Source: an uncultured Thermoplasmata archaeon
GTDB taxonomy: Archaea; Thermoplasmatota; Thermoplasmata; Halarchaeoplasmatales; Halarchaeoplasmataceae
Direction of reading: 5' to 3'
DNA length: 64,000 bases
NCBI GenBank assembly: GCA_964602715.1
Contig: CAZRSB010000003.1
Span: 5,783 to 69,782 of the forward strand
Shown here: piece after piece, positions 1,977-51,588 of the stretch
How positions within the stretch are numbered: the first letter of the stretch is position 1
Layout of the letters: each line of letters opens with the position of its first letter
The notes under the pieces: model-generated
Told to the model about the DNA's origin: nothing
The model's database searches: none
What the model saw: only the letters and a program-made list of their open reading frames with translations
Program-made: the position numbers and the translations under genes

Positions 1977-3074
1977 ATGCCAGAATATAAAAATCAACAT
2001 TATGTTCCACAGTATTATCTAAAGTTTTTTAATGACGGGAATAATAAGATTTGTGTTTATAATTTTGATAAAATGGATGAATTTATGGTACCAGTCTCTA
2101 ATGTATGTTCCAATACTTACTTTTATGGTGAAGGGAACATCGAAGAAAGTTTGAATGATTTTGAAACTCAATGCTCAGAATTGATTGAAAAAATAATTGA
2201 GAATGGTAATTTGAATAATATTAGCAATGAAGAGTACACTTTATTATTACAATTTATCCTATTCCAAAGAAGAAGAACAAAAAAGGCTAAAAACGAGATC
2301 GATGAAATTGTACAACACTTTTTCAGAGAGATTACAAAATATGGGGTTGAAAGCGGAGAATTAGACGAAAAAGCCTATGATTTAGCACAGAAAGGAAAAA
2401 TTAGACTAGAACATCCTATGTTTCAATACAGTCTATTATATGGTCCACTTTTTTACAGATTAATAGCCGATCTTGAACCTCTATTAATTCAAAATGAAAC
2501 AAAGAAGGACTTCGTTATAGGAGAACATCCCATAATATTTGATAACCCTTTATTTAAACATACGCAAATTCATGGTGGGATAGGACCGCTAAATAAAGGG
2601 TTGGTTATAATATGTCCATTAAGTACTGAATTTGCGATATTATTGTATGATCCTAAATCTTATAAGTTTGAGTTTGAAAATAGGTTGAAAATCAAAATTA
2701 AAGATCCTTTAGTGATTAAATCACTTAATATTTGTCAATATATCTATAGTGATTCAAATCTGTTCTATGGTCAATGTGGAAGAAAATATGAGATGAGAAC
2801 TATTCAAAAATATTTTAGAGAAGATAAACAAGAAGAAATGTCTAAACACATAGAATATACTCAATCGAATACTAAAAAATCGTTTTTACAATCAACTTCA
2901 AACCCTAGCGATTCTACACCTTATCTACCGTTCCTAAAAGAAAAAAACGGCGTCGAGTTTAAGTTAGAAAGAATAGAAGGTTTAAGTGAGGAAATCCATA
3001 AAGAAGTTTTAACGTATCTTGAAGATTTTTCTGAGTTATCAGAAGACGAGATTAAAAATCTATTCTTCACTTAA
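1977..3074 (+). CDS. DUF4238-family protein (candidate single-gene antiphage protein, Rst_DUF4238-like)
   Basis: N-terminus MPEYKNQHYVPQYYLKFF matches the HYVPQ(F/Y)YL(R/K)xF signature that opens DUF4238 (PF14022). Gene is very AT-rich relative to core genes. Confidence 0.6.
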   Translation: MPEYKNQHYVPQYYLKFFNDGNNKICVYNFDKMDEFMVPVSNVCSNTYFYGEGNIEESLNDFETQCSELIEKIIENGNLNNISNEEYTLLLQFILFQRRRTKKAKNEIDEIVQHFFREITKYGVESGELDEKAYDLAQKGKIRLEHPMFQYSLLYGPLFYRLIADLEPLLIQNETKKDFVIGEHPIIFDNPLFKHTQIHGGIGPLNKGLVIICPLSTEFAILLYDPKSYKFEFENRLKIKIKDPLVIKSLNICQYIYSDSNLFYGQCGRKYEMRTIQKYFREDKQEEMSKHIEYTQSNTKKSFLQSTSNPSDSTPYLPFLKEKNGVEFKLERIEGLSEEIHKEVLTYLEDFSELSEDEIKNLFFT

Positions 3075-3408: not shown

Positions 3409-3746
3409 TCAAATAATTTTTGAGACCGTTGTTTTATGATGTCAAATTCATAATGAACCTCTACATTTTCTTTATAAAAAATTGGAACAGTATTTCATTT
3501 TCCACCTACTCAAACTCGCATCTCTCGCAATCCATCGATAGCTTCGGCACCGGGGTCTCCATCTTCAGTATGGCGAAAGAGAATAGTAAGGAGTAAGAGC
3601 ACCCAGAGGAGTACGAGTGAAAGAGATTTTTTCTGTGCTGTAATAGGTCATTAAATCACATCTGGGTCTACTGATAGTTTAGTTACCAACATCGAACAGG
3701 AAACCGTAATCATTATGAAACACCTATGTGTTTACATAGGGAGGAT

Positions 3747-4505
3747 ATGATGCGCAAGAACACTATGCTGACCTTGGAGGAGAGCGTGACAGAAACGGCC
3801 AAAACCATTGGTATAAATCTCAGTCAAGTGGCCGAGAAGGCCATAAAAGAGAGGATTCAAGAGATACTAAGACCAAGGGGAGAGGGGGTTGTTCAGATCC
3901 CCCAAACGGAAAAGGTGGTGCTAAAGAACGTCGGACATTTCCAAGGTGAGAGGGAATTTGAGTTTTCGAGCGGCGTGAATATCATAGTCGGGCCTAACGC
4001 TTCAGGAAAAACTACCATAATCGATTCGTTGAGAGCTGCCTATGGAGATGAAAGGTCTCCGACGAAGAACCAGTTCATGGAGGAAGAAGATGAGAGCTGG
4101 GTACGTGTCGTCCCTGAAAACGGAGCAATAAGAAGGAACGTTGGAGATGAGATCTCGTTCCCGCAGGGAGATACTTCTGAAAGGCTCGATCTAGAGAGAT
4201 TCGAGGGCTTAACCGAGGACGTTAAAGAGCGGCTGAAGTCTAGTGAAACTGAGAGAGCCCTATCAGAGGGAGATAGAGTTCTCAAGGAGATCATCCTCCA
4301 GTCGATGGCCACGAGAGGTAACGAATGTTATCTTAGAGATGGGACGTTGGCGATGTTAGATACAGAGATGAAAGAGATGGTTTTGGATTTCCTATATGAA
4401 CAGGAATTTCAGGTCATACTCACTTACCCTGAGAGAGGGGAGGAAGATAGCGTGATAAGTTCAGAAGATCACAACTTGATAGAATTGGGAGAGAGGAGGT
4501 CCTAA
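3747..4505 (+). CDS. compact ABC/SMC-head-like ATPase with N-terminal RHH-like segment
   Basis: GGAGG RBS at 3738-3742 precedes ATG 3747; the track ORF starts at 3726. Motifs: RHH-like MLTLEESVTETAKTIGINLSQVAEKAIKERI; Walker A GPNASGKTT in an EFEFSSGVNIIVGPNASGKTTIIDSL context typical of SMC/RecF/AAA_21 N-termini; signature-like LSEGDR; Walker-B-like TLAMLDTE; H-loop-like ILTYPE. No coiled coil. Confidence 0.55.
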   Translation: MMRKNTMLTLEESVTETAKTIGINLSQVAEKAIKERIQEILRPRGEGVVQIPQTEKVVLKNVGHFQGEREFEFSSGVNIIVGPNASGKTTIIDSLRAAYGDERSPTKNQFMEEEDESWVRVVPENGAIRRNVGDEISFPQGDTSERLDLERFEGLTEDVKERLKSSETERALSEGDRVLKEIILQSMATRGNECYLRDGTLAMLDTEMKEMVLDFLYEQEFQVILTYPERGEEDSVISSEDHNLIELGERRS

Positions 4506-8489: not shown

Positions 8490-8532
8490 TATAATTATAA
8501 CATCACCTGCTCTATATAGTTTTTTTGTTTTC

Positions 8533-8606
8533 TACATAGTTTACTATATGGTTTTCCATACAGTTTTCCATATGGTTTGCTGTATGGTTTTCCATATCGT
8601 TTGCTA
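8533..8606. repeat. about 6 degenerate tandem copies of a 12-bp unit (TATGGTTTTCCA / TACAGTTTTCCA / TATGGTTTGCTG / TATCGTTTGCTA)
   Basis: Read directly in sequence. Lies 45-120 bp upstream of the RHH gene start (8489). The 8323..8697 ORF across it is a repeat artefact. Confidence 0.6.
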
Positions 8607-9003
8607 TGTGCAAAGGGAGATTTTCTCTTATACTCGATCATCTCCTATAAATTCTCTGGATAGCGATTTTAGTCAAGGCGTAGTAGGGGTACACTAAAAG
8701 GTGCACTATTCCTCGGAAACCGCCGCATGCGGTATATTATACCCCTTCATTTCACCCCTGCCGGCCCCAGGGGGGATGAGGGGTCCCCAAGGGACGAGAG
8801 GAAAAGATGGAAGGAGGGAGCAGGGAAGACAGAAGAAAAGCCGGAGAGGAAAGAAGTAGGAGTAAGAAGAGAGGGGCGAGGGACCGGCGGAAGAGGATGA
8901 GATAGCAGGCGGAGATGAGAAAAAAGTATAGGTAGAAATTAAGAAAGTTTATATTTTAGACGAGCACTCTTTATATGTCAGACAGACTGGAGGCATTAAA
9001 AAT

Positions 9004-9802: not shown

Positions 9803-12058
9803 TCAACCGTAATCTTCAAAATTTCTACTTATATAGGGGGCCTGCTCTTTGGGCTTCAAAGGTTCAGTCCTATTTCCTCTTCTAACAAAGAATTTTCCCT
9901 TTCCTTCTCTTTCTATAAACGAGGGGGTATCTGCATGTTCAACTTCTATTAAGCACACTTCCTTACCATTTACGGTAAAGAAAGAAACCTCAATATAATC
10001 ATTGAATTTTTCTTCCATATAGGAAGAAACTAGATTGAGTAGATGCCGTTGGAAAGCTTCTCTTTTTTCTTCCTCTTTGAACGTATCATAATCTTCTTCT
10101 AGACCGTAAACTTCTCCATCATTTTTAACGCCGATTAATAAAGTCCCTCCTTCTTCTGAGTTCAAAAATCCATTTATAGCTTTCATCGATTGATATTCCA
10201 CATCTTTTGTTCTCATACCTCTATCTTTTATATCCGTACGAAGGGTGGATTTAAACTCTAAATTTTGACCTTCACCTTCTTCGATCAACAGTTGGACATT
10301 TGTATCTTGTGCCCTTGAATCGATAACATTGAAAGTTATCCCATCCAGCTCTTCTTTGAGAAGTTCTTCGAATATCTTTATCCTCTTCTCGATAAATTCA
10401 TCGAGATATTTATGGCCCAATTCATCATCCCGGCACCAGTCAAGTATGGCCTTGGGGATTAGATGGGTTTCTAACACCTCTTCAAATCCTTCTCCATCAT
10501 AATCTTTAAGATAGTCAATTGGATTCTTGTCACTGATCTCTAGATTTGTAATCTGGGGAATATAAGCTATGTTCATAAGGCTGTCTTCGTCCAATTCATT
10601 GTCACCAGGATAATCCTCTACAAATCCACGTGGAAAGATATGATGTAGGTTTGGCTTATCTATTAAATGATAATATACTTCACTTATCACTGATCTATCG
10701 TAGTGTTTCCAGTCTTTTGGATCCTGGTTCGATAAGAGGGACAAAATAGCTCTAGAAAATCTCCCTCTATAACTGTATGATGATTCTCTCAGATCATTCC
10801 TATCCAGAATGAAAGGTTCAAATTCAAATTCTTCTCCCTGTTTGGCTTTCTCTAACTCTTCTAAATGATCATATCGAAGATGTCTTGTGTGCTTCAGTTT
10901 CTCTTCATTGTGGAACGAATAATACCAGAAGTACTTTTTTAGTAAATCATAATCAGGATCATCGTTTTCGTAGAAATAAGATGAGATAGTTATGTAGAAA
11001 TATCTGTATGGGATAAGATTTGGACCTTTCAAATGAAGATGGTTTTCAAAGAAGTCAAAAGTATCCCTAAAGGCTTCTTTCGCTCCATCCCATACCTCTT
11101 CTATTTGTTTTGCTGTGATATTATTTAGATAGGTGTCAGTGATATTGTGGACACTTGCATCTTCTATGTTCTGTCTAATTATCATCGCTAACATCTGAAG
11201 GTATGTTTGATACCCTATTCCGGAAAACTCACCTGGTGTATTGTCTTTGAAATCATCTATCATCTCTCTCAGATAGAAACCGCCCTCTGGATGCCCTTCT
11301 TGCCTAAACGTTTTAGCTACCACTATGTCAAATATGTTGAGAGGTTCACCTTCCTGATTTACTCTCTCAAATATTTCACAGACCTCATTGGTCTCTATTC
11401 CCTTCAATTCAATAAATGGGATCCTGTAGTTATCCATCACATGCTTTATCTTCCTCAAATTTTCCCTGTAAGGATGTTCGTAAGAAGTATACCCTAGATT
11501 ATGTATATTCCTTTCAATCTCATTATAGTTCTCCTTTATATCTTTCAGTTTTACGATCAGTCCCTTTTTGTATCTTTTCATCTTTGGGATGTTCTGCTTA
11601 ATCTCTCCGCCTTTGTCGTCTATCTCACCCCAACATAAGAAGCGTTTTTTATACTTTGAATCTTCCTCGTCTTCTTCCTCCTCCACCGTGAGGTCAACGT
11701 ACATAGTGGGCTCAAAGTCTCTTCTCCACTCCCCTTTAGCCCCATATAGGGAGGTTAGCAGGGCTGTTGTCCTTTGCTGCCCATCCAATATATATTTGAA
11801 GTCTGATTCTCTCTCAGAATCGTCGATCTCGTGTCCCCCGATCTTCCTATGTTTCTGCAGTTTTACATCTGTCTTCCAGACCAATATGCTCCCAATCGGG
11901 TAAAATTTATAGATACTGTCCCACAACTTTTTCACATTGTTCTTTTCCCAAATAATTTCCCTCTGGAAAGTGGGAATCTGATATTTTTTGTTCTTCAAAT
12001 TTTCAAGATATGTCCCTATAGAATCATGAGTGGGTTTGATTCTATCTGCATCTTCCAT
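9803..12058 (-). CDS. GmrSD-like type IV restriction-type nuclease (DUF262 + DUF1524) fused to a C-terminal AlbA_2/Schlafen-like domain
   Basis: N-terminal DUF262 motifs (QREIIW, ILDGQQRTTAL). Central His-Me-finger/DUF1524-like HHIFPRGF...NIAYIPQITNLEISDKNP. C-terminal EFKSTL...AINGFLNSEEGGTLLIGVKNDGEVYGLEED resembles the AlbA_2 (PF04326) core. Confidence 0.65.
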   Translation of the reverse strand: MEDADRIKPTHDSIGTYLENLKNKKYQIPTFQREIIWEKNNVKKLWDSIYKFYPIGSILVWKTDVKLQKHRKIGGHEIDDSERESDFKYILDGQQRTTALLTSLYGAKGEWRRDFEPTMYVDLTVEEEEDEEDSKYKKRFLCWGEIDDKGGEIKQNIPKMKRYKKGLIVKLKDIKENYNEIERNIHNLGYTSYEHPYRENLRKIKHVMDNYRIPFIELKGIETNEVCEIFERVNQEGEPLNIFDIVVAKTFRQEGHPEGGFYLREMIDDFKDNTPGEFSGIGYQTYLQMLAMIIRQNIEDASVHNITDTYLNNITAKQIEEVWDGAKEAFRDTFDFFENHLHLKGPNLIPYRYFYITISSYFYENDDPDYDLLKKYFWYYSFHNEEKLKHTRHLRYDHLEELEKAKQGEEFEFEPFILDRNDLRESSYSYRGRFSRAILSLLSNQDPKDWKHYDRSVISEVYYHLIDKPNLHHIFPRGFVEDYPGDNELDEDSLMNIAYIPQITNLEISDKNPIDYLKDYDGEGFEEVLETHLIPKAILDWCRDDELGHKYLDEFIEKRIKIFEELLKEELDGITFNVIDSRAQDTNVQLLIEEGEGQNLEFKSTLRTDIKDRGMRTKDVEYQSMKAINGFLNSEEGGTLLIGVKNDGEVYGLEEDYDTFKEEEKREAFQRHLLNLVSSYMEEKFNDYIEVSFFTVNGKEVCLIEVEHADTPSFIEREGKGKFFVRRGNRTEPLKPKEQAPYISRNFEDYG

Positions 12059-12490
12059 GGTATAATCACCTATTTTTGTAAAGCTAAACGATTAACAACA
12101 TAGAATATTTAAAATTAATCGCCGTAATTAATTTGATAAAAGTGTAGAAAACTACTCATTAAAGTTTCATCATCTATTCCGTTATTCTCACTTGCTACTT
12201 TTCTTCAGGCAGGAAACTTCATAAAATCTGTGTGATTTAAGAAGAAGCTAGAAATATGAATCATTCTAATATATACTTATATGAGTGTATATTCCTCACA
12301 CTCTACCGGATTTATGAAGGTGATCTTCACTTCTTTATATAGTATCACTTAAGTTTAACAGATGAAACTCGAAAATCGACGGAGAAACAGGAATTTTTAA
12401 CGATTTATCCTGATTGATTTTATTTTTTTCAAGAGGAAGAAAGAGTATTGAGGAAGAAAAGGTATGAACGGACAAAATCCCTAACGCACG

Positions 12491-12523
12491 CACGCATGCG
12501 CATTACGTAACATGTCCGGACAT
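12491..12523. repeat. three adjacent perfect palindromes (CGCATGCG, TTACGTAA, ATGTCCGGACAT)
   Basis: Read directly. Lies in the 515-bp intergenic gap between the GmrSD-like gene and the Rep-like gene. Confidence 0.55.
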
Positions 12524-12573
12524 ATCACATATAATAATACTATACGCGATCTGTCCGAAGTCCTATCTAGAGA

Positions 12574-15500
12574 TCAGTATCTACTTTCTATACCGTCTGG
12601 TGGGCGTGGTCCTTCCAACGGACTCTGATAGGGGCTTTCCCCTTCCAACTCTGTATCTCCTCCTGGGTTTATCCCGTTCAGGCCTTGATTGATCCATTTA
12701 TAGGCCACTCCTTCCTTTTTTTTGACAAGTGTATCAGTTTTCTCCTCTAGTTCATTCAGGCATCGTCGCACCTGTCTCTTTGACAAGTCGATCTTCTTTG
12801 CAATCGTCTTAGTGGTAAACTCTTCTCTTTTTTTCGCCTCTGAAAAGACTTTCTTCATCCCATCACTCCAAATATTTATGACCCCTGGTTGTGTCTCGTG
12901 AGGGACCCAATCAGGTAAAGTGTTCGTTTCGACATACACAACCGCTCCTTGTCCGTCTCTCCCGAAGCGCATTACTGCTTGAAGAGTGGCATTATGAGTC
13001 ATATGCCGATAGATTTTATTCCCAAAATCCCCATAGTCAGTATCCTCCCCTCTCCCTTCTCTTTCTACTCCCTCGTTTTGGTAGGCCCCCCATTTTTTGA
13101 TGTAATCGTCTCCGCAGTGATTCGATCCGATAACCACACCCAATCGCTTTTTTTTAAGCTTATTTGATCCTTTCAGATTACCGTAGTGAGTGTGATCATC
13201 GACGAATGTGAGCAATCCTTCTTCTTGGTATTGGTCCTTTGCTTTTTTCGTGGTGATCATAGAGGGCCTCTGATCATATAGTTCCGTTAGCTTTTGAAGA
13301 AGGAGCCGATCCGACTCGATGTTGACGTAATTCCCTGAGGAGTAGGGTTTCATGTGCTCAGTCGTGCGGATAAAATGATGATTCAATCCTTCCTTGAGGT
13401 ATTTCTTTCTTTCACTGTCATCCAATACCTGACGATGTTCTAATCTTGCACCACCAAGAGAAATTTCCCACATCTCTTTAATGGGAGTTCCATCTAATGC
13501 AATGATTTGCCTGCAGTAGTACAGATTCGGGGGTTTCATGACGTGAATTCTGTTAGTCGCTCGGTTATGAAGAACGGTGAGATGCTTATTTTTATCAAAA
13601 TAGCGCTTACGCTCGTATCCGTTGACCGTATTATCTTCATCTCCCACCATTTCAAGGAGGGCATGAATCACTGTAGGGGTAAGTGAATGTGTTTCTTCTG
13701 AGTCAAGGACCCATGTTGGGGTTTTCTCCTTCATTCCATCGAGATATTCGAGTGCTTTTTCCCGCCTTTTTTCATCATCCCTGTTTTCCAAAAGATCGGT
13801 AATGTTTTGGAAAGGGATCCTATCTTCGTCCTGAAGGTAATCCGATATGGCTTTTTTTAATTTTTCCGCTGAAAATTTTTCCTCAAAGGCATCCTCGGGA
13901 AATTCATCGAATACTACTGTTCTCTTTTTCGTAACTTTGGGAAGATGAGCACATAGATAATGCCCTATCAGAACATCGTAATATTCCGGATCGAAGTTCC
14001 AAGCCATGCTGTACGGACATGCCCCATCCTTTTGACACGGAGGAGAGCAGTATTTATGGATCTGTTGTGGGGTAAGCCCTCGTTCATACCAATCTTTTAC
14101 CTTATCTTTCCACTCTTCACCGTGTTCCCCTGTTGCTGTTGGACAACTCTGAAAAAAAGAAGGTAGCCGTTTATATGAGAGGTTCTCATCCTCGCACCAC
14201 TCTTCTATCTGTTTATACTGCTCTTTATGTCCCCGATCGGTAAGAACCGTTAGGGGTGTGTGTGTTTCTTTAGCGGCTTTGATTATACCGTTGCTCTTCC
14301 CTAACGAGGGTAGTGCATCGATGAGGATGTTTTCTTGGCTTTCTAACGCATCTACAAGGCAGTCTAACGTTTTTTTCCGTGCTTTTTCCACATGCCTTCT
14401 CCGTGGTCTGTCATCTATGAGGATGGGTTCAACAGGTAAATCACTTACATCATCAGGCTTGTTCACTGAAACTAATAGATCTGGTTTTGGAGATCCTTTT
14501 TCGAGGATGGGAATATCATATCCTCCCTCACTAAGTCCCTCTACGGCTTTCCAGAATGTCCTCCCGTCGAGTTTTTCAGCAGGAGTTGATATGAGCCCCA
14601 CTCCCAGCGCATACGCCTTGAGAGGACCACCGCCCTTATCTACTTTGTTATCTATGAACCGATTTTCTCCTTCAGGGATTGCACAAGATTTTCCGCTTTC
14701 ACTCTCCCGCCAAGAGGGGTTGAAGGTGATTTCGGATGATCTGTTCGAGGTGTCAAACTCGTCGGAAGCGTACTTTTTGACGATCTCTTTTACATCGATC
14801 CTATTAACAGCATCTACTACATCACACCAGTTATCGGTAGTTTCTAAATCAGCCAGGTTAATGTTCTTTTTACGACGCTCTTCCCGTCTCTCTTTCCGAT
14901 CTTCGGTAATTTTTTTTCGCCGTTTTTCTTTTTCCTTCTCCTCTTCAACCCAAGTCTTAAGGGCAACTTTCCAGTCCCCTTCGTAGAAATCTGGAAAGAG
15001 ATCTGAAATCATTTTGTCGAGTGGTCTATGGTTTTCGGGAACTGTGGTAAAATCTACACACCATTCTTTGACCTTTGAAATCAATTCGCTGTCTACGTCT
15101 TCCTTGCGAATCAACTTGTACTCCACGGTGGCAGTATCTATTGGATGGACCACGCCATCTATTTCTTTGTGTAAAGAGAGAGGGCCTTTATATTGCCGAT
15201 TCTTATTGTTAATCGCATCCATTTTACAGATTTCTTCTGCTCCATCAACGCTTTCAAGAACTTCAATCCTCTTTTTTTTAATCCAGTCATTCATGCGGTC
15301 CGTCAATTCATCGAATATTTTTCCCTTGCTGTTCAAATCGCTAATAGGTGCAGTGACGCCTGGAGCAGTGAATATGTAAACTCCTCCAACAGAATCCAAT
15401 AGAAAGACGTGATCCTCTCCTACCAACCTCTCGAATTCTTTTATCATCTTCTCTATCACTTTTGAGAATATTTTTTTCTTCTCAGAAGGAAGGGAGCGCT

Positions 15501-15903
15501 CTTTATGGGCATCCTTTAGGTCAATATCAACGAATAAAGCAGTGGCATAGATTTCATCATAATTAGGCAGAGGTGATTCCCCTCCCTCAAAATATGTGCC
15601 CCCATCGGTACTTTTGCATAATTTCTCTTTCAGAACATCTTTTTTCTGGTAGTTGAGCACGGCGTAATAGTGTCTGTCGATCTGATCTGCAAGTTCTCCA
15701 GCATCACCTCCCAAACTGTAAGGGCGGCCCCGATACTGATATCCTTCTTCGTAGCTTTCGATTTTCTTAGCCGGTCTTTTGTGGTACCACCCATAGTGAT
15801 CACTGATGCCAAAAGTAGTAGTCTCTTCCATCCCTCCTAGAGCTTTGAAAATCGGGATCAATTTTTGGTAATACTTCCTGTGCTCACTCCTTTTCCGTGT
15901 CAT
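12574..15903 (-). CDS. replication initiator-like protein: AEP primase-polymerase-like N-domain, P-loop NTPase, C-terminal wHTH
   Basis: AEP motif I-like ALFVDIDLKD and motif II-like DSVGGVYIF. Walker A-like LPSLGKSNG and Walker B VVFDEFPE. C-terminal helix-turn-helix KTIAKKIDLSKRQVRRCLNELEEK. 1109 aa. Confidence 0.55.
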   Translation of the reverse strand: MTRKRSEHRKYYQKLIPIFKALGGMEETTTFGISDHYGWYHKRPAKKIESYEEGYQYRGRPYSLGGDAGELADQIDRHYYAVLNYQKKDVLKEKLCKSTDGGTYFEGGESPLPNYDEIYATALFVDIDLKDAHKERSLPSEKKKIFSKVIEKMIKEFERLVGEDHVFLLDSVGGVYIFTAPGVTAPISDLNSKGKIFDELTDRMNDWIKKKRIEVLESVDGAEEICKMDAINNKNRQYKGPLSLHKEIDGVVHPIDTATVEYKLIRKEDVDSELISKVKEWCVDFTTVPENHRPLDKMISDLFPDFYEGDWKVALKTWVEEEKEKEKRRKKITEDRKERREERRKKNINLADLETTDNWCDVVDAVNRIDVKEIVKKYASDEFDTSNRSSEITFNPSWRESESGKSCAIPEGENRFIDNKVDKGGGPLKAYALGVGLISTPAEKLDGRTFWKAVEGLSEGGYDIPILEKGSPKPDLLVSVNKPDDVSDLPVEPILIDDRPRRRHVEKARKKTLDCLVDALESQENILIDALPSLGKSNGIIKAAKETHTPLTVLTDRGHKEQYKQIEEWCEDENLSYKRLPSFFQSCPTATGEHGEEWKDKVKDWYERGLTPQQIHKYCSPPCQKDGACPYSMAWNFDPEYYDVLIGHYLCAHLPKVTKKRTVVFDEFPEDAFEEKFSAEKLKKAISDYLQDEDRIPFQNITDLLENRDDEKRREKALEYLDGMKEKTPTWVLDSEETHSLTPTVIHALLEMVGDEDNTVNGYERKRYFDKNKHLTVLHNRATNRIHVMKPPNLYYCRQIIALDGTPIKEMWEISLGGARLEHRQVLDDSERKKYLKEGLNHHFIRTTEHMKPYSSGNYVNIESDRLLLQKLTELYDQRPSMITTKKAKDQYQEEGLLTFVDDHTHYGNLKGSNKLKKKRLGVVIGSNHCGDDYIKKWGAYQNEGVEREGRGEDTDYGDFGNKIYRHMTHNATLQAVMRFGRDGQGAVVYVETNTLPDWVPHETQPGVINIWSDGMKKVFSEAKKREEFTTKTIAKKIDLSKRQVRRCLNELEEKTDTLVKKKEGVAYKWINQGLNGINPGGDTELEGESPYQSPLEGPRPPDGIESRY

Positions 15904-17761: not shown

Positions 17762-18997
17762 CTAATCAACTCTATCTTTCAATACTTTCTTGAACTCTTC
17801 CATTATCTCTTCGTTTTCGTTCATCAACTTTACCATGTCCATGAAATCCTGCATATCATCTAACACTTCTGGCTTTTCTTTTGCAAGTTGGGTAAAATCT
17901 TTGCTTACATCTTCTTTATCCTCTTCTATCTCTTGAGCGGCTTCCACACTTAGCGCTTGTCCACATCGCTGACAAAATTTAGCCTCGGGGGAGTTCTTTT
18001 CTTCACATCTAGGACAGTCTATAGGTGATAATTCGGCGTTGTCATCCTCTTCTTCCTCCTTTATCCCATGAATCTTGTCATATGCGTCATCTATATCTCT
18101 TCCGCTGAGATGCACATATTTAGAAGGTTGATCACTACCTTGGACCCATCCAAACCATTCACACATCATCGCCTCTGTGAATCTGGGGGCTAAAAATGTT
18201 GCTCTACTGTGTCGAAAATGATGTGGATTTACAGGCTTATTGATTTCTGCCTTTTCCGCTGTAGTGTTTAATGCCTTGAGTAAAGTTCTATATTCGGCTT
18301 TCTTTCCGTTATTTTTTGTACCAATATTGACCCATAACGGAGCACTATCCTCATCCCTTTTTGGATGTGAATTTAACCACTCTCTCACATCTGGAATACT
18401 GCTTACTAACGGGAGCCTTCTCGGGCCTGTCTTTCCGTTTATCACAATTTTCAGTCCGTGTTCACGATCCTCAAAATCCCCAATGGTCAGATCAATAATC
18501 TCACCGATTCTAGCGCCTGTTTCCCAGAGAAGGCTGATTAAACACCGATCTCTCGGGTTGCTAGCGTGATTTATCAACTTACTCACATCATCTTCAGTCA
18601 GCATTTTTTTCGGTAACTTACCGTTATTCTTTTTCTCTGTAGTATTGATCCAATCTACTTTATCTGGATATACCCCATCATTCAACCACTTATAGACTAC
18701 TTTTAGAACTATCTTATACTGTCTTTTAGTGGCATCAGCAATATCTCTAGAGTTTACCCAGGCTACAATCTCTTCTATTTGTTCTCTTTCAGCGCCTTTC
18801 AAGTCAAAATCGACATGTTCTAAGATTTTTTTCAAATGTGAGAGAAGTTTTTGTAAGTGAGCATCTGAATAGTCCTGTAGCATAAGATGCCTATGATATT
18901 CTTCTAAGAGTCCTTTGTTTCCTTCAGTTACTTCGTCATTCTCTTTTACCTTTTCGAGGATTTGCTCATGCCGCCCCTCATAGTCTAGGAGAGTCAT
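17762..18997 (-). CDS. int: tyrosine recombinase/integrase with C-terminal zinc ribbon
   Basis: SAM-like N-domain. Catalytic residues in TGARIGEI, HHFRHSRAT and the downstream Y region. C-terminal CPRCEEKNSPEAKFCQRCG. Confidence 0.8.
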   Translation of the reverse strand: MTLLDYEGRHEQILEKVKENDEVTEGNKGLLEEYHRHLMLQDYSDAHLQKLLSHLKKILEHVDFDLKGAEREQIEEIVAWVNSRDIADATKRQYKIVLKVVYKWLNDGVYPDKVDWINTTEKKNNGKLPKKMLTEDDVSKLINHASNPRDRCLISLLWETGARIGEIIDLTIGDFEDREHGLKIVINGKTGPRRLPLVSSIPDVREWLNSHPKRDEDSAPLWVNIGTKNNGKKAEYRTLLKALNTTAEKAEINKPVNPHHFRHSRATFLAPRFTEAMMCEWFGWVQGSDQPSKYVHLSGRDIDDAYDKIHGIKEEEEDDNAELSPIDCPRCEEKNSPEAKFCQRCGQALSVEAAQEIEEDKEDVSKDFTQLAKEKPEVLDDMQDFMDMVKLMNENEEIMEEFKKVLKDRVD

Positions 18998-27413: not shown

Positions 27414-27605
27414 ATGGATCAAGAGAAAAAATTCGTAAAAATAAAATGCTCCGACTGTGAAAATGAGCAGATAACTTTCAAAAACGTCTCGTCTGAAGTC
27501 GAATGTTTAGTCTGTGGAGCATTTCTAGCCAGACCAACAGGAGGATTCTCTGATTTTGACGGAGAGATTATAGAAGAAATCGGAGCATCCGATGAGGTTG
27601 AATGA
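27414..27605 (+). CDS. rps27e: 30S ribosomal protein S27e
   Basis: FVKIKCSDCENEQITF...CLVCGAFLARPTGG. Conserved position after L44e. Confidence 0.9.
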   Translation: MDQEKKFVKIKCSDCENEQITFKNVSSEVECLVCGAFLARPTGGFSDFDGEIIEEIGASDEVE

Positions 27606-28773: not shown

Positions 28774-29301
28774 TCACTTTTTGTAATATCTATCCCTTTC
28801 GCTGAAAATACAGCCGCAATATCCCTGTTTATAGAGGTTTAATTTATTTGCCATGTTATGATGTTCTGAAAAACCTTTCCTCAAGTCCTTATAAATAAAT
28901 TCTACATCTTTTGATCTTCCAACTCTTTTTCCTACCTTTTTGATCAATTGATGATCCTGGTATGGTGAGATAGTTAATGTTGTGGAAAATCGAGGTATTT
29001 TCTTTTCTTTAGCAATTTTTGCCGTCCTCAGAAATCTTCTTTCATAACAGATCTCACATCTATTTTCAGCTTCTAGCGCTTCTTTTAAAAAGCCTTCTAA
29101 GTGGTATTCATCTAAAAAAATAATTTTTGTATCTATCTCTTCCTCAAAGTTTTTCATAGATTCTAAGCGTTTCTCATATTCTTTAAAAGGGTGTATATTA
29201 GGATTGAACCAGATAGGTGTCACATCATCATATGCCTTTTTAAACTCTTTATAAGAGTAGGTAAGACAAGGAGCACAACAAGTATGAAGTAAGATACTCA
29301 T
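28774..29301 (-). CDS. queH: epoxyqueuosine reductase QueH (DUF208) homolog
   Basis: N-terminal LLHTCCAPC and C-terminal GYCGCIFSE match QueH hallmarks. 175 aa. Confidence 0.8.
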   Translation of the reverse strand: MSILLHTCCAPCLTYSYKEFKKAYDDVTPIWFNPNIHPFKEYEKRLESMKNFEEEIDTKIIFLDEYHLEGFLKEALEAENRCEICYERRFLRTAKIAKEKKIPRFSTTLTISPYQDHQLIKKVGKRVGRSKDVEFIYKDLRKGFSEHHNMANKLNLYKQGYCGCIFSERDRYYKK

Positions 29302-29325: not shown

Positions 29326-32300
29326 TCAAAAATCTAGAGAAAGTCGTTTTTTCTTTTTTTTCTCCTTTTCCGCTTTCTTTTCCTCTTTCTCTTCTTGAAA
29401 TTCATACACTACTAAATTAGTTCCGCAATCCGGACACTCCTCTTCTTCCTGAGAACAAGAGACATCATAGAGTTTACCACAGCTACAGTAAATTAGTTTT
29501 TCACCTTCATCGATCATCTCCCCACAAACTTCACATTTTTCCTTTTCCTCGGCAACTCTTAACTCTGAGCCTAGACTCACATCTAAAATTTCTTCGTCTT
29601 CAAAATTTTTATCGTCAAATATTCTAAGACCGCTAGCTACGATAGAGGCTCCCTCGTTCGAAGGTTTGATTTCACATGTGATCACGTGTTCTTCTCCAGC
29701 TTTTAGCTTTTCTTTGTTTGATATATCTCTAATCTCGCCCCCTATGAGTTCTATTTTGATATCTTTAGCGAGAGCTTGACCCTGGTTTATTAGTGAAATA
29801 TCCGCTTCATCCCATTTATCTACAGTAAATTTTCCAGAAACGTGCACTTCAATATCTGGGCTGTAATCAGAAAGCACATCCTCAATCTCTTGATGAGCTT
29901 CTTTTATTTTTTCAAAGGCTTCTATTTTGTCTTTCTCCTTTTTTATTGCCTCGGCCTCCTCTAATTTTTCTACAGCTGATTTGACGGAAGCTCCGAATTT
30001 TTTAGCATTTTTTATGGATTCCTTAACTTGGTTTAGAATCTCATCATACTCTTTCTGCTTCTTCAGACCTGAAATATTTTTAGCCTCTTCAATATATTTC
30101 GAAGCTTCTATAGGGTTATCAAACTCCATGAAAAATCTAGCTTTCTTCAGTATCTCTAACGCATTATCGACATCCTTTTCTCCTTTTTTTCTGACGTCTC
30201 CTTCTAGATTCTCAATGACGTCCCTGATCACGTCTTTATTTTCTGCTAAAATTTTATCAATATCTTCTAGAATCCTTTTAGCTTTTTTATATTGGCCATT
30301 TCTGTGATATTGGATGACTTCATTTTTCCTTTCTTCAAACTCAGATATATCTATTTCTCGATTTTCAAACTCTTCCATCAGGGTGTCAATATTATCTATA
30401 AAAAGTTTGATGTCTTCATACGCTTTCAATAGATTACTTAATTCTTCCCAAGCTTTCCAGGAATTTTCAATCACCTTAGTGTAGAAACCACTCTCATATG
30501 ATTGATTTGCTTGTTTCAGTATTTTTTTTGGTTGTTCAATTAGGATACCTTGATCCTGGAGCCTTTCTAACTCCTCTTTAGTTTTCGTAAGGCTTATGTT
30601 GGCTAATTTCTTCTGCATGCCCATCCTTTCTAGCTCACCCTCTGTTTGCATCGCGAACTTTACACCTTCGAGAAATCTCCTTTCATTTTTAGCTTTAACA
30701 GCTTTTTGAATCTTATTTTCAGCAAGAGCGGTATAAACGCCTTTATCACTTAGATCTTTTATTCTTTTTTTAGAATTGTTTATGATCTGTTCTAATCTAT
30801 CCTGCTGAGCTTTCTTACTGTCATCTAAAATTTTTTCAGCCTTTTCAAAAGCTTCATGATACCTAGCTTTTTCTATGTCTTCTTCAGCTTTTTCACTTAA
30901 CTTCCTTTCCTTACTTACATCCGCACCCATTATAGCAGCCTTCATCAAAGTGGTCTTGGCCTCAGCTAACACTTTTCTAGCTGATTTACCTTCTTCTTTA
31001 ATTTCATCAAGATCTTCTTTCAGGCCTTTTAACTTTTCTAGAGAATCCGTAATCCTTTTTTGGTTCAGCAAAGATCTTGTCCGTTTAATCTTATCTTTTT
31101 TCTCATCAACTTGAAAGCCCATCTCTTTCGCACAATCGCAGATGTCTTTAATCTTTTCTAATTCCTCATCTAAAGATTTTTCCAATATATCATTCAATTC
31201 GGTCTGTTTCTCTTTTATAATCTCCTTCACATCCGATTTTTCCCTGTCACTAACGGACTCTTTGATCTCTTGAAATTCTTCCTCGAATTCTTTAACCTCT
31301 TTATCAGAGAGCTCATAATTTTCTATTTTTTCTAATTTTTCTTCGATATTATGTGTTACCTCTTCAAAAAGATTATCAAATTCAAAGTTAGTGAGGATTT
31401 CATCAGCTTCCTGGGTTTTTTGTATGCTGTTCTCGTAATTCCTTGCTTCAAATTCTTTTTTTGCCTCTAACAATATGTTCTTTGCTGAATTGAGTTCATC
31501 ACCATCTTTTTTCTTTCTAAGATCTTTTAATTTAGATGCCGCGGCTGAAAGCATATCATAAGCTTCTTTTCTTTTATCTTTCAACTTAACCAGCTCCTTT
31601 TTCAATTTCTTTGCCGAAATTATACTATCGACAAAATTTTTTCTTTCTGTTTCTTCCTCTAAGTTTTTTAAATTTTCTTCATAAGCATCGGTTTCGACCC
31701 CCTCCTTCTTCGCCTCTTCTATCTCCTCTCTCGTTGTAGTCAGGGTTTTCTCAGCTATCAGAGATAGCGAGTTATTTAGGCTATCAAAAGCTTCTTCTAT
31801 TAAGGGCAAAGCTTCTGTTTCTTCGTCATCTTTCATGAAATCCTTAGCTTTTTCTATTTTTTCCTTTTGAGTGTCTATGTCTTCTACTTCTATCTCTTCT
31901 TTTTCAACTAGCTCTATTTTATCAAGAACCTCATCAATCTTGCTTTCTGCGGCACCCATCTTGACTCTTTTTACTTTTTTTCTTAAATGTTCTAGATTCT
32001 TTATAGAATCATCATATCTACTTTCTTCGATGCTTTTTTCACCTTTTGATACGATATCACTGAGCTCCTCCTTTGTCTCCTTTTCGATGTCTTCTATCTC
32101 GATTTGTTTTTCCCTAATTTCATCGTACTCCTGCTTTAATTTGCTTTCGATTTTTTCTGAAATTATCTCTATTCCTTTTTGAGCTATCTCAGCACTTTCT
32201 AAGTGATCAGAAGCTTCATATTTTTCACGGCTTCTTTTTATCTGATCAGAAAGTGATTCTAAATCGATATCTAATTTTTTTGCGCTTTTAGATAGATCTT

Positions 32301-33738
32301 CTAAATCACTGATCAGTGATTTAGCCTTTTCTTTTGATGCCTTAACTATTTTCTCCTGAAGCTCCTGGGATAAAGATGTTACTTTTTCTAAATTTTTTTC
32401 ATCCCATTGATATTTTATATCCTCTATTAACCCCTCTAACTCTTCAAAATCCTCCTCAAAAACGTTAATTAGTTTCCTGACTTCATCTTTCTGTTCTTGT
32501 ATCTTTTCTTTAGTTTTTTCAAACTTTTCAGTTAATTCTTGAACCTTTTCTCTTCCTTTGTGAGCCCACTCTAAAGATTCCTTGTAATCGTTCTTTTTCA
32601 AAGAATCTCTAGCAGTATTTAAAAATCGCATAGGCTCTTTTATGTCTGCACCTATCTCTTTAGCTTTTATGAAATCCTCCCTAGATTCCGCTATAGTATT
32701 CAAAACTTTATCGAATTTTTTTTCTTCAATTTTTTCTAAAGCTTCATTTAATAATCTATCAGCTTCTTCAATTTTGTCTTTTTTTTCTAAATTTTCAGCC
32801 TCCTCCCTCATCTCTTCTACTGTTTTTATAGGAGCATCTATCTCTTCTGCTTCCTCTATCTCCTCATCTAATTTCCTGAATTTTGATCCTAATATCTTTT
32901 CATCATAGATCTGATTGATCTCTTTTTTACCTTGTTTTAAATCTCTCAAAGCTTCTAAATATTTTTCCTCTTTGATTTTAGATTTTCCGTCATTTAATAA
33001 TTTATCCAAATTCGTTAATTTAATATCCTTGTTTTCTTCTAATTTCGCTTTTTTCCTTTCGATTTCGTTTATATTTTCCTGTAAGCCTTCTTCTACATGG
33101 TCTAGTATCTCTTTTTCTATATCTTGGATCAGAGACAAAGCTCTTTCAAATTCTTGAGAATCCAAAGAATACTCAGCCTTCGAAACCAACTCTTTCCCGG
33201 CCTCTTTTACATCTTCTGGTTCATCAAGGAAATCTATTAGAGACTCTAATCTTTCTTTCCTTTCTATTAAACCTTTTTCAATTATTTTCTCTGATTCCTT
33301 TTTCACCGTCACGATTTCATTTAAACCTTCTTCAATATTTCCCTTTTCTAGAAGAACCTTACAGTTTTCGATCTTTTCCTGCATCTCCTTAGATCCGCTC
33401 TCAGAATCAACTTCTTCTAGTATCTTATCTAAAGGACCAATCAACTCTTCATATTTTGAGATGCTTTGTGATTTTATAGATTCAATAACTTCTTGAAAAA
33501 TATCCAATGATTTTCTAAAATTCTTTTGTTCTAATTCTTCTTTACCTTCCTCAAATGACGTCTTCACATCTTCCAATTCTAAATCTACCTCGGAGGACTC
33601 AGCCAAATCAAGGAGTTTTTCCGTTTCTTTCATCATCTCCTGGGCATTTTTCTTTTCTTCCGCCGTCTTTTTGGCTTTTTCCTCCATCTCCTTTGCAAGT
33701 TGTCTTGCTTTTAGATACTTACCTGACAATCTTTTCAC
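29326..33738 (-). CDS. giant coiled-coil protein (1470 aa) with C-terminal beta-rich domain and zinc ribbons
   Basis: E/K-rich heptad-like sequence through about 1250 aa. C-terminus: CEVCGEMIDEGEKLIYCSCGKLYDVSCSQEEEECPDCG, then a KEKKKKK tail. Confidence 0.7.
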   Translation of the reverse strand: MKRLSGKYLKARQLAKEMEEKAKKTAEEKKNAQEMMKETEKLLDLAESSEVDLELEDVKTSFEEGKEELEQKNFRKSLDIFQEVIESIKSQSISKYEELIGPLDKILEEVDSESGSKEMQEKIENCKVLLEKGNIEEGLNEIVTVKKESEKIIEKGLIERKERLESLIDFLDEPEDVKEAGKELVSKAEYSLDSQEFERALSLIQDIEKEILDHVEEGLQENINEIERKKAKLEENKDIKLTNLDKLLNDGKSKIKEEKYLEALRDLKQGKKEINQIYDEKILGSKFRKLDEEIEEAEEIDAPIKTVEEMREEAENLEKKDKIEEADRLLNEALEKIEEKKFDKVLNTIAESREDFIKAKEIGADIKEPMRFLNTARDSLKKNDYKESLEWAHKGREKVQELTEKFEKTKEKIQEQKDEVRKLINVFEEDFEELEGLIEDIKYQWDEKNLEKVTSLSQELQEKIVKASKEKAKSLISDLEDLSKSAKKLDIDLESLSDQIKRSREKYEASDHLESAEIAQKGIEIISEKIESKLKQEYDEIREKQIEIEDIEKETKEELSDIVSKGEKSIEESRYDDSIKNLEHLRKKVKRVKMGAAESKIDEVLDKIELVEKEEIEVEDIDTQKEKIEKAKDFMKDDEETEALPLIEEAFDSLNNSLSLIAEKTLTTTREEIEEAKKEGVETDAYEENLKNLEEETERKNFVDSIISAKKLKKELVKLKDKRKEAYDMLSAAASKLKDLRKKKDGDELNSAKNILLEAKKEFEARNYENSIQKTQEADEILTNFEFDNLFEEVTHNIEEKLEKIENYELSDKEVKEFEEEFQEIKESVSDREKSDVKEIIKEKQTELNDILEKSLDEELEKIKDICDCAKEMGFQVDEKKDKIKRTRSLLNQKRITDSLEKLKGLKEDLDEIKEEGKSARKVLAEAKTTLMKAAIMGADVSKERKLSEKAEEDIEKARYHEAFEKAEKILDDSKKAQQDRLEQIINNSKKRIKDLSDKGVYTALAENKIQKAVKAKNERRFLEGVKFAMQTEGELERMGMQKKLANISLTKTKEELERLQDQGILIEQPKKILKQANQSYESGFYTKVIENSWKAWEELSNLLKAYEDIKLFIDNIDTLMEEFENREIDISEFEERKNEVIQYHRNGQYKKAKRILEDIDKILAENKDVIRDVIENLEGDVRKKGEKDVDNALEILKKARFFMEFDNPIEASKYIEEAKNISGLKKQKEYDEILNQVKESIKNAKKFGASVKSAVEKLEEAEAIKKEKDKIEAFEKIKEAHQEIEDVLSDYSPDIEVHVSGKFTVDKWDEADISLINQGQALAKDIKIELIGGEIRDISNKEKLKAGEEHVITCEIKPSNEGASIVASGLRIFDDKNFEDEEILDVSLGSELRVAEEKEKCEVCGEMIDEGEKLIYCSCGKLYDVSCSQEEEECPDCGTNLVVYEFQEEKEEKKAEKEKKKKKRLSLDF

Positions 33739-33959: not shown

Positions 33960-34511
33960 ATGGGACGAAAATTACCTAAATACCTAAAAGAAAAAGAGGT
34001 TAGGAAGCTTCTCAAAGCTCCTGAAAGAGAAAAGATACGCGATAGGTTGATTCTGAGAATCCTATATAGATGTGGATTAAGAGTCTCAGAACTCACATCG
34101 CTTAAGATAGAGGACATTGATTTCGATGAAAATATGATAACTGTGAGAGGAGGAAAAGGGGATAAAGATAGAGTTGTTCCTATTGATCATGAAACTTTAG
34201 ATCTAATCCAGCTTTACAAAAAAGACGCAGAAAAAGGAATACTTATACTTTCACAGCGTGGACAAGGTCTCTCTACTAGACAGATCGAGAGGATAGTCAA
34301 AAAATATGCAAAGAAAGCTGGAATCGATAAAAATGTCTATCCACACATGTTGCGACATAGCTTTGCTGTACATTCTTTAAAAGCAGGAATGAATTTAAGG
34401 AGTGTGCAGAAGATGTTAGGTCATTCGTCATTGACTACTACTCAAATTTATCTAGATCTCACAGGTGAAGATATAAAGAAAGATTACGAAGAGCATCCTC
34501 TACCAGCCTAA
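33960..34511 (+). CDS. short tyrosine recombinase (catalytic domain only, 183 aa)
   Basis: RVSELTSLKIEDID...VRGGKGDKDRVVPI...HMLRHSFAVH...LGHSSLTTTQIYL gives R, K, HxxR and Y catalytic residues. No N-terminal core-binding domain. Confidence 0.75.
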   Translation: MGRKLPKYLKEKEVRKLLKAPEREKIRDRLILRILYRCGLRVSELTSLKIEDIDFDENMITVRGGKGDKDRVVPIDHETLDLIQLYKKDAEKGILILSQRGQGLSTRQIERIVKKYAKKAGIDKNVYPHMLRHSFAVHSLKAGMNLRSVQKMLGHSSLTTTQIYLDLTGEDIKKDYEEHPLPA

Positions 34512-49659: not shown

Positions 49660-51588
49660 TCATCTAGCTTCAAAACCGTCCCGTACTCTTGCTGCTAGAC
49701 CCTTATCTAGAGTATCGATCTCCTCTTCGTTAAGGAAAATCCTACCAACAGCAACAAGATCATCTTCTTTATCTACAACTAAAGCTTCATCACCAGGTCT
49801 TAAATCTGATGATATAGAACTTACAAATTTTGAGAATACACTCTTTCCTTGTCTGTTGAACTCCACGCTGTCCTCGACAACTTCAATTCTAAGATCTGGT
49901 GGCGAAAATTCTTTCCATAATCTCCTAGCTCCTCCTTCCTTTAAGGTGAAAAATCCATCGTAATGCCTCATAGAAAGTATGTGTTCTCCATCTAGTATAA
50001 CGTTCTTAATCCTTCCTTTCTTGTTTTTGACGTAATCTAACTCTCCATCCGTTAGCACTTCTCCTGCACCTTTAATGAATTGATAATCCGCTACTGCCTT
50101 GATCCTCATCTCATCAAAATCTAGATCTTCTTTTCTAGAAAGACTATCGAGAGTCCCCTCTCCTTCCCACAAGATCAACTCGTCTATCTGTTTTTCGTCT
50201 TTATAATCATCTAAAGATAACAACGGAGTTACGTGAGAGGGTAAAATAGATTGAGCTATAGGATATATCTCATCAAGTTCTAAAGGTACAGGTCCAAATA
50301 CTGTCGATACGAGTAGATTAACATCATATTCCTCTAGTAGAGATATCTCTTTTCTAAGTGCTCGGGCATAAGGTTTTCTCTCAGGCTCTTCAAAATAGAC
50401 AGTAGGACCATCTTTTGGAGGAGAATAACTTTCCATTATCCAATTCTGGATCCTTCTAAAATTAGGACGGAATGATGTTTCCTTACCCGTGTAAAGAGCT
50501 GCACCTTCTCTACTTCGGGGCTCATATCTTTCTAAATAATCGTATTCACCTTTCAAGACATCTAAAGAATCTAACAACAATGGATGTCCTCGAACTCTTT
50601 GTTCAGTGAATTCCCAAAGCTTACCTTCCATTATGGCCTGCTTTATCCTATCAATCTCCCGGAAGCTAACCCATAGATTGTGCTCAGCGATTGGTGCTAT
50701 ATCTCCTTTATCAAATTTATATTCTAGTTCTTCGGCTTGGTGAGAAGTACAAACAGGACACTCACAACCCAAATATTTTATATTTTTTATATTTTTAGTA
50801 CCAGAGGAATACATCATATCCCCTCTCTTGGCATATTTAGCATAAGAACTGGAATCAAATAAATCACATCCTAATAGAACAGCCAAAGAGTAAAGCATAG
50901 GATGTCCTGCACCAAAAAGATGTACAGGACCTCTAGGGCCTAATCCTTTTTTAGAAGCTAATATCACTTCCACAAGTTCGCGAAATCGGTATTCTTCCAT
51001 TAAAGGTACAACCCCTCCTATCGGATAAACTCCTCCTCCTAATTCCCCCATTACCTCAGCACAATATTTTCTTAAATCTGGAAACAATGATCCCTGGACA
51101 GGAAAAGCTATCTCACCTTTTAGACTATCATGTATCTTCTTGGCTTCTTTCGCTCTTTTCACTGTTTTTTCTACTTTTTTATTGGCTATTTCACGAGAAT
51201 CATGAGGTTCGGTAAATTCATCTAGGATCGTTAATATGTCTGAGCCGATCTCCTTCTGGAACTTCAAGATCTCTTTGGCTTCTATATCTATATCGCCATA
51301 TACGTGGGCCTGAAAAGTTCCTGAATCAGTCATGACAGGGCCTGAAAAGTTCAAGAGTCCACGAACACTTTTTTCCCTAGCCTTTTCTTTAAATTTTTCA
51401 TTAGTATATATAATGTAGGAATTAGTGATCAATATTTGTACATCAAACTCCTCCTCTAATCTCTTTATAGGTATCAGTTCTATAGAAGGATTCACTACTG
51501 GCATTATGGCTGGAGTCTGAATCGTACCGTGTATGAGTTCAAGCTTCCCGATCCTTGCTAATCCATCTTTTTGTTTGATCTCGAACAT
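49660..51588 (-). CDS. tgtA: archaeosine tRNA-guanine transglycosylase
   Basis: TGT catalytic domain with zinc site CxCxxC, plus C-terminal PUA domain. 642 aa. Confidence 0.9.
   Translation of the reverse strand: MFEIKQKDGLARIGKLELIHGTIQTPAIMPVVNPSIELIPIKRLEEEFDVQILITNSYIIYTNEKFKEKAREKSVRGLLNFSGPVMTDSGTFQAHVYGDIDIEAKEILKFQKEIGSDILTILDEFTEPHDSREIANKKVEKTVKRAKEAKKIHDSLKGEIAFPVQGSLFPDLRKYCAEVMGELGGGVYPIGGVVPLMEEYRFRELVEVILASKKGLGPRGPVHLFGAGHPMLYSLAVLLGCDLFDSSSYAKYAKRGDMMYSSGTKNIKNIKYLGCECPVCTSHQAEELEYKFDKGDIAPIAEHNLWVSFREIDRIKQAIMEGKLWEFTEQRVRGHPLLLDSLDVLKGEYDYLERYEPRSREGAALYTGKETSFRPNFRRIQNWIMESYSPPKDGPTVYFEEPERKPYARALRKEISLLEEYDVNLLVSTVFGPVPLELDEIYPIAQSILPSHVTPLLSLDDYKDEKQIDELILWEGEGTLDSLSRKEDLDFDEMRIKAVADYQFIKGAGEVLTDGELDYVKNKKGRIKNVILDGEHILSMRHYDGFFTLKEGGARRLWKEFSPPDLRIEVVEDSVEFNRQGKSVFSKFVSSISSDLRPGDEALVVDKEDDLVAVGRIFLNEEEIDTLDKGLAARVRDGFEAR

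Follow-up and report, generated by a model that had tools for sequence, protein, structure and literature searches.

What is the function of a DUF262 protein that ends in a Schlafen domain? The question is raised by a gene at 9803..12058, on the minus strand of a 64,000-nucleotide stretch of DNA from an uncultured Thermoplasmata archaeon (GenBank assembly GCA_964602715.1, contig CAZRSB010000003.1, positions 5,783 to 69,782; this whole stretch is called the window below). Both the list of open reading frames (ORFs) and the translation give it 751 codons from an ATG start and a product of 751 aa, and the gene model is sound, because four public contigs carry an identical protein and the alignments of homologues begin at its residue 1. 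Our analysis confirmed three domains in this protein, namely DUF262, an HNH/His-Me finger in the center and Schlafen/AlbA_2 at the C-terminus. We favor, with moderate confidence, the interpretation that it is a single-polypeptide dual-nuclease defense enzyme acting against viruses or other mobile DNA, in which a BrxU-type restriction body is joined to a Schlafen nuclease effector. The features concerned are the following:

9803..12058, minus strand: whole gene, predicted BrxU-like GmrSD enzyme with a C-terminal Schlafen domain, 751 aa
11309..12007, minus strand: DUF262/GmrSD_N domain (ParB-like NTPase), residues 18-250 (PF03235, E=1.4e-31)
11915..11929, minus strand: KLWDS, residues 44-48, counterpart of the BrxU nucleotide-binding motif RLFDS (BrxU alignments)
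11771..11785, minus strand: DGQQR, residues 92-96, nucleoside triphosphate (NTP) hydrolysis motif (translation)
10739..11308, minus strand: linker, mostly alpha-helical, residues 251-440 (AlphaFold secondary structure; approximate boundaries)
10319..10738, minus strand: His-Me finger (HNH, DUF1524-like) nuclease domain, residues about 441-580
10631..10645, minus strand: HHIFP, residues 472-476, counterpart of BrxU DHIYP (translation)
10520..10573, minus strand: NIAYIPQITNLEISDKNP, residues 496-513, second strand and helix of the His-Me finger (translation)
9857..10273, minus strand: Schlafen/AlbA_2 domain, residues 596-734 (PF04326 SLFN_AlbA_2, E=4.2e-16)
10250..10273, minus strand: EGQNLEFK, residues 596-603, Schlafen nuclease motif Ex4ExK (E596-x4-E601-x-K603; translation)
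10118..10123, minus strand: N646-D647 in GVKNDG, expected site of the third acidic active-site residue (motif scan and alignment)

In the Pfam scan of the window protein both terminal domains score above the gathering scores of their models, PF03235 and PF04326, and an NCBIfam search returned zero matches. A search of PDB sequences with the family profile recovered residues 7-253 of BrxU (7p9k) at E=3e-16 and no other part of that protein. Two nucleotide-related motifs lie in the N-terminal domain, and W46, D47 and S48 of the first, like the whole of the second, DGQQR, are unchanged across 54 homologues. The RLFDS motif, to which KLWDS corresponds, has a role in nucleotide binding by BrxU (PMC8565348).

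The kinship to BrxU extends well beyond this domain. Residues 12-572, including the helical linker, form one collinear match to the PADLOC HEC-05 model PDLC04151 (model positions 26-594 of 600, E=1.6e-35). Payne et al. equate HEC-05 with BrxU, whose own score on this model is 776 bits. With the full-length AlphaFold model (predicted local distance difference test score, pLDDT, 82.7) Foldseek matched BrxU 7p9k at E=2.7e-11 and SspE at 3.7e-4, the identity to BrxU in structural alignments being only about 16%. In the center, PNLHHIFPRG...MNIAYIPQITNLEISDKNP can be matched by eye with FHVDHIYPKG...PNLQLLEGTINNQKRQKMP of BrxU, such that NIAYIPQITNLEISDKNP pairs with PNLQLLEGTINNQKRQKMP and H473 becomes the presumed catalytic histidine. 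H472, H473, P476, N496, N505 and P513 are invariant in the 54 homologues and fall on the strand-strand-helix pattern of the AlphaFold model, where residues 497-501 form a strand and 502-505 a helix. The protein therefore displays the hallmark of the GmrSD/BrxU family, a His-Me fold with a catalytic histidine and asparagine ligands that follows a helical linker, and both sequence and predicted structure indicate that its center is a BrxU-type HNH/His-Me finger, with matches far beyond chance. BrxU cleaves DNA containing 5-methylcytosine (5mC), 5-hydroxymethylcytosine (5hmC) or glucosyl-hmC in an NTP- and metal-dependent fashion and undergoes an ATP-driven switch from dimer to monomer; residues of DGQQR and DHIYP are required (PMC8565348), and the substitutions D474A and H475A abolish defense (PMC8565348; Payne et al.). 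Because the window protein retains these motifs, with KLWDS for RLFDS, DGQQR unaltered and HHIFP for DHIYP, its N-terminal and central parts would most likely constitute an NTP-gated HNH restriction enzyme.

The C-terminal part has structural counterparts in DIP2311 (3lmm, 8e-5), SAMD9 (7ksp, 9e-4) and the tRNase domain of rSAMD9 (9o0d, 1.2e-3), and Foldseek also returned SLFN13 and SLFN14. Its Ex4ExK motif, the catalytic signature of prokaryotic Schlafens according to Perez Taboada et al. (10.1101/2025.07.24.666596; PMC13056530), is unchanged in 21/21 close fused relatives. In CbCash mutation of this motif abolished tRNA cleavage, and the prokaryotic Schlafen domains tested to date act as effectors that cleave tRNA, with cleavage shown for RorSlfn5 and CbCash. 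By analogy with these enzymes the domain is probably a tRNA-cutting nuclease. The Schlafen part diverges faster than the remainder of the protein (80% identity to the copy at the related locus L010, vs 89% for the body). Against that copy, which is 88% identical, it gives a nonsynonymous divergence (dN) of 0.109 and a synonymous divergence (dS) of about 3, which indicates purifying selection, although only as a qualitative statement, synonymous sites being saturated here and in almost all comparisons.

These results bear out most of what a sequence-only reading of this DNA had proposed. The three-domain architecture, from an N-terminal DUF262 with DGQQR to an AlbA_2/Schlafen C-terminus, is upheld by the two Pfam models, the alignment of the center and the predicted fold, in which the His-Me catalytic residues are likewise present. 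The HEC-05 model and the BrxU and SspE structures agree with the kinship it had drawn to GmrSD, BrxU and SspE, and every motif it quoted (DGQQR, HHIFP, NIAYIPQITNLEISDKNP, EGQNLEFK) is found in the translation. Its "DUF1524-type" label for the center holds as a statement on the fold and fails as one on Pfam membership. Its view of the Schlafen domain as a second sensing domain has become less likely, since Ex4ExK is invariant and the tested prokaryotic Schlafens are effectors.

The fusion is not peculiar to the window. The database search brought up about 22 clusters that carry this fusion, at 57-84% identity. The named members are haloarchaeal (Haloarcula montana, Halorubrum aquaticum and Halorientalis) and bear only the annotation "DUF262/GmrSD domain-containing protein"; there is also a fragment from a Thermoplasmatota metagenome-assembled genome that is annotated as "RNA-binding domain-containing". 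Unfused relatives form a very large family of proteins of ~588 aa, which are 55-65% identical across the first 77% of the query. A neighbor-joining tree built on the first 572 residues puts the 21 fused proteins into a single clade that contains zero unfused members, and this grouping indicates one fusion event within the subfamily. A scan of GTDB genomes with the single protein as query gave no match, a pattern- and alignment-based scan of 185,579 species genomes matched only Haloarcula montana GH36, and a metagenome scan added ten further close loci. Searching exhaustively with residues 440-751 retrieved at least 20 more distant representatives (50%-identity clusters, each of at least 700 aa) whose matches run through the HNH region as well as the Schlafen domain. 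GmrSD_N and SLFN_AlbA_2 were both recovered in 10/10 of those tested; where the motifs were checked, DGQQR and Ex4ExK were each present in 19/19 and (D/H)H-x-x-P stood at the expected position in 17/19. As such distant clusters share both layout and motifs, the architecture of three parts and three motifs is, to judge by these comparisons, widespread and old rather than a one-off. Three of the distant fusions carry extra N-terminal extensions (P0174, 908 aa; P0175, 1176 aa; P0256, 991 aa). That of P0174 is an EVE domain, a known reader of modified bases, and that of P0175 weakly matches a His-tRNA-synthetase-like region, which suggests that the fusion family may have repeatedly gained recognition modules.

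Fusions of DUF262 to Schlafen domains are also on record, so the remark of the sequence-only reading that none had been described is outdated. Perez Taboada et al. (Nat Microbiol 2026, PMC13056530) place them in class pSlfn7, which counts 109 proteins (1.8% of the prokaryotic Schlafens) and has a defense score of 0.76. The window protein has the features of this class, a PF04326-PF03235 fusion with an Ex4(E/D)xK motif, and one catalogued entry, NC_013159.1_200 (765 aa), shows the same domain spacing (13-229 and 603-750). The single tested member, EcoSlfn7 from E. coli UC4224 (WP_028985442.1), lowers T7 plating 538-fold (PMC13056530). It resembles the window protein in joining an N-terminal PF03235 to a C-terminal PF04326 with Ex4ExK, and in being a single gene on a mobile element, in its case amid P2-like prophage genes. 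It differs in its length of 589 aa, in an NsnA/PD-T4-2-type DUF262 with DGLQR replacing DGQQR, and in having no visible HNH-type motif, and it is probably, to judge from these differences, the product of a separate fusion event. Perez Taboada et al., the sole paper on DUF262-Schlafen fusions that our literature search found, interpret the domains fused to pSlfn as sensors, and their text mentions neither GmrSD nor HNH (PMC13056530). Among the extra domains of GmrSD proteins listed by Machnicka et al. 2015 are DUF4268, DUF4357 and DNA_binding_1; AlbA_2 is not one of them. The window protein thus lies within a catalogued class and is a putative two-nuclease variant of it.

Several observations weigh against a dual nuclease. 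The Pfam model DUF1524/GmrSD_C (PF07510) finds no match in the whole protein at E<=1 or in the isolated center at E<=10, and among 54 family members its best and sole near-match has E=0.11 (1/54). Two distant fused relatives do match it, at E=2.8e-4 and 4.4e-3, both under the gathering score. Because PF07510 fails directly, the His-Me/HNH assignment rests on the PADLOC match, the AlphaFold and Foldseek results, the invariant residues and these two distant matches. An hhalign comparison of the family profile with the single BrxU sequence, for all its probability of 97.8%, covers residues 17-337 only. The residue before the catalytic histidine is itself histidine, where BrxU and HEC-06 have Asp or Glu. 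HH is, nevertheless, a common HNH motif, seen for example in colicin DNases, and the distant fused relatives have either HH or DH at this place. In the Schlafen domain the third acidic residue may, on alignment, be missing or displaced in the clade of the window protein, which has GVKNDG, as do P0002 and L010, where most relatives have GVxDDG; the match of the Schlafen profile to SLFN11 (E=0.052) is too weak to fix the register of the catalytic Asp. EcoSlfn7 is 29% identical to the window protein over just 72 residues, and T7 DNA is not known to carry hypermodified bases; being distant, lacking DGQQR and the HNH motif and acting on T7, EcoSlfn7 says little on what triggers the window enzyme. 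Finally, no BREX (bacteriophage exclusion), restriction-modification (R-M) or Dpd-like genes adjoin the window gene.

Of the other interpretations, the leading one is implied by the sequence-only reading: the HNH domain would be alone in acting as effector, and a non-cutting Schlafen/AlbA_2 domain would bind or sense nucleic acid, widening or gating target recognition. We hold this to be unlikely. It is consistent with the invariance of the HNH residues, and with N646 standing in the window clade where most relatives have Asp, and some mammalian Schlafens do without catalytic residues; yet Ex4ExK is kept in the distant fused proteins just as in the close ones, and binding alone would need less. 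The AlbA_2 fold of SAMD9 was crystallized with DNA as a DNA-binding domain (7ksp), whereas the same domain has now been deposited as a tRNase (9o0d), in line with the effector activity of the prokaryotic Schlafens tested so far.

It is more improbable still that the GmrSD-like body, with a catalytically weak HNH domain, only senses infection and leaves the Schlafen tRNase as sole effector of a purely abortive infection. Such a division of labor would agree with the sensor role that Perez Taboada et al. assign to the domains fused to pSlfn (PMC13056530) and with the ability of EcoSlfn7 to defend without a visible HNH-type motif, and both the failure of PF07510 and the D-to-H change, a departure from the DUF1524 consensus, could be taken as signs of a catalytically weak center. 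On the other hand, H472, H473, N496 and N505 are invariant, (D/H)H-x-x-P persists in the 17/19 distant fused clusters, HH is ordinary among HNH enzymes, and the unfused relatives, 55-65% identical, possess this nuclease alone and occur in BREX loci as BrxU does.

The neighborhoods of relatives speak to the wider role of the family. Defense-type neighbors occur at seven other fused loci, in six distinct contexts, and at three unfused loci; those of the fused loci are:

Locus L010: PglZ and SNF2 helicase, 74 bp upstream
Loci L013/L014: type I R-M (HsdM, HsdS, HsdR, YgjP)
Locus L017: DEAD helicase and MrfA zinc-binding (DUF1998-type) protein
Loci L006 and L007: TGT/DpdA-like gene with an ATPase
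Loci L006 and L018: QueD/QueE/FolE/QueC

The unfused relatives examined (L037, 442-8193; L039 and L041, 2299-13102; 55-65% identity) lie between BrxC/PglY (DUF6079-type) and methyltransferase plus SNF2 helicase genes, or before a ZorA/ZorB-like operon, with no separate Schlafen gene next to them in the three loci. BREX adjacency was found for L010, L039 and L041, not for the window gene. Since the Pfam DUF1524 model does not detect their HH-type HNH domain, public records call the unfused relatives nothing more than "DUF262 domain-containing protein". Taken together, these contexts point to a defense role. At three independent loci (L006, 1-7426, in Haloarcula montana GH36; L007, 12345-15422; L018, 9234-11819) genes resembling a 7-deazaguanine DNA-modification (Dpd-like) cluster, with TGT/DpdA-like and preQ0-synthesis genes among them, are situated less than 10 kb from the fused gene. 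In L006 and L007 the TGT/DpdA-like gene is accompanied by a BrxC/BrxD-like ATPase and by an ORF of 300 aa. This proximity may be mere defense-island clustering, or a functional link between a modification system and a type IV-like enzyme. That the gene is no defense gene at all, and serves housekeeping or element-encoded DNA processing such as partition, repair or plasmid maintenance, is very improbable, for although it has no recognized defense neighbors in the window, where an apparent integrated element with an integrase and many unidentified ORFs surrounds it, and DUF262 falls within the ParB-like superfamily, its relatives adjoin BREX, R-M, Zorya-like, helicase/DUF1998 and Dpd-like genes, its distribution is patchy (the one match in the pattern-based genome scan), and the protein itself matches PADLOC defense models.

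Comparison with characterized systems places the window protein closest to BrxU. It departs from that enzyme in its HH pair, in the failure of PF07510, in the additional Schlafen domain of 170 aa, in its archaeal host and in its position outside a BREX locus; unfused relatives do have a BrxU-like siting in BREX loci. SspE and DndI are phosphorothioate-sensing DUF262 enzymes, and the C-terminal domain of SspE is a DUF1524 domain; their similarity to the window protein is much weaker than that of BrxU, and neither carries a Schlafen domain. With the eukaryotic Schlafens, the SAMD9 tRNase domains and the CRISPR-associated Schlafen (Cash) it shares the AlbA_2 fold and Ex4(E/D)xK, but it has a single AlbA_2 lobe set on a restriction enzyme, is without helicase, Csx15 or SAM domains, and is ambiguous as to the third acidic residue.

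The dual-nuclease interpretation is built on the domain identities, the conservation of motifs, the single origin of the fusion in the subfamily and the defense-island contexts of relatives. Residues 1-580 most likely represent a complete type IV restriction enzyme of the BrxU type (GmrSD family), in which binding and hydrolysis of nucleotide by the DUF262 NTPase would, by analogy with BrxU, toggle the enzyme between dimer and monomer, and the HNH/His-Me finger (H473, N496, N505) would cut foreign DNA, probably base-modified. Residues 596-734 would add a Schlafen-type nuclease, most likely a second effector that, upon engagement of the enzyme, attacks tRNA or other RNA, so that direct restriction would be combined with translation shut-off. 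In this scheme we infer the control by NTP, the preference for modified DNA, the RNase activity and the coupling between the nucleases. As to the target, the EVE domain of one distant fused relative is a hint at modified DNA, and the repeated Dpd-like neighbors hint at deazaguanine-modified viral DNA. More tentatively, we entertain as a possibility a two-layer immune enzyme, in which recognition of modified viral DNA triggers both HNH cutting and the Schlafen tRNase, with translation arrest as a back-up. If true, type IV restriction would gain its first enzyme that has an abortive-infection arm built in, found mainly in archaea within the clade of the window protein.

Around the gene, two further features of the window are relevant:

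12059..12573, minus strand: upstream spacer, 515 bp, AT-rich (read from sequence)
17762-18997: tyrosine integrase with a zinc ribbon

The spacer contains a TATA-like box, TTTAAATA, at about 12106-12113 and GGTGA at 12066-12070, and probably holds the gene's own promoter. Immediately upstream lies a 1109-aa ORF (12574-15903, minus strand), in which Pfam detects only a weak C-terminal helix-turn-helix and which has no PADLOC match and no PDB sequence match. We rejected a two-gene system with this ORF, because a 515-bp gap separates the two genes and the other fused loci lack the ORF. A small ribbon-helix-helix (RHH) protein and several unidentified ORFs are also nearby, and the region looks like an integrated element. 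The 1109-aa ORF, the RHH protein (54 aa), a 355-aa PadR-like protein and the integrase look like the core of an uncharacterized archaeal integrative element; in 1-23000 no convincing integration-site (att) direct repeats were found that would mark its borders. Searching the window by tblastn with PglZ, BrxC, a BREX-locus methyltransferase, SNF2 helicases and other defense proteins encoded at the loci of relatives gave no match. No ssp or dnd genes were seen among the ORFs scanned to about 35.8 kb, beyond which the window was covered only by tblastn with a few defense proteins. A connection with the TGT homologue of the window (49660-51588) was rejected, as that gene lies about 40 kb from the fused gene and shares only 24% identity with the DpdA-like genes; it is most likely a housekeeping archaeosine enzyme.

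The window as a whole has a G+C content of about 37% and encodes aIF2-alpha at 27602 together with PAS/GAF and TPR proteins, in keeping with an archaeal host. Adjoining aIF2-alpha is a strong match to QueH, the epoxyqueuosine reductase (28774-29301, minus strand, E=4e-55), which is unexpected in an archaeal genome because archaea normally make archaeosine, not queuosine. A 1470-aa ORF (29326-33738, minus strand) with no Pfam or PADLOC match adjoins a short tyrosine recombinase of 183 aa (33960-34511, plus strand), and the pair could be another mobile or defense-related unit. On the left flank a DUF4238 protein (1977-3074, plus strand) is encoded, as is a 259-aa ORF (3726-4505, plus strand) whose CcdA-like N-terminus leads into just the N-terminal P-loop portion of a GajA/AAA_23-type ATPase. 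This ORF may be a truncated defense ATPase, and there are hints that this flank too is defense-island-like. An intergenic tandem array at 8527-8610 consists of about seven 12-nt units resembling GTTTTCCATATG.

Both parent families of the window protein are established in defense, BrxU/GmrSD enzymes restricting modified DNA and prokaryotic Schlafens cleaving tRNA, and here, as in many relatives, what appears to be a complete restriction enzyme is joined to a Schlafen nuclease with all three catalytic motifs kept. If both nucleases are active, the family would provide a simple model of how one polypeptide can link direct restriction of DNA to a shut-off at the RNA level, and would add to the few defense enzymes known from halophilic and methanogenic archaea. 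For annotation, the finding means that the Pfam DUF1524 model overlooks a large BrxU-like subfamily with HH in place of DH. Modular defense proteins are common, so the fusion as such is not surprising; yet it presents a well-conserved candidate restriction enzyme that has an RNA-level arm built in.

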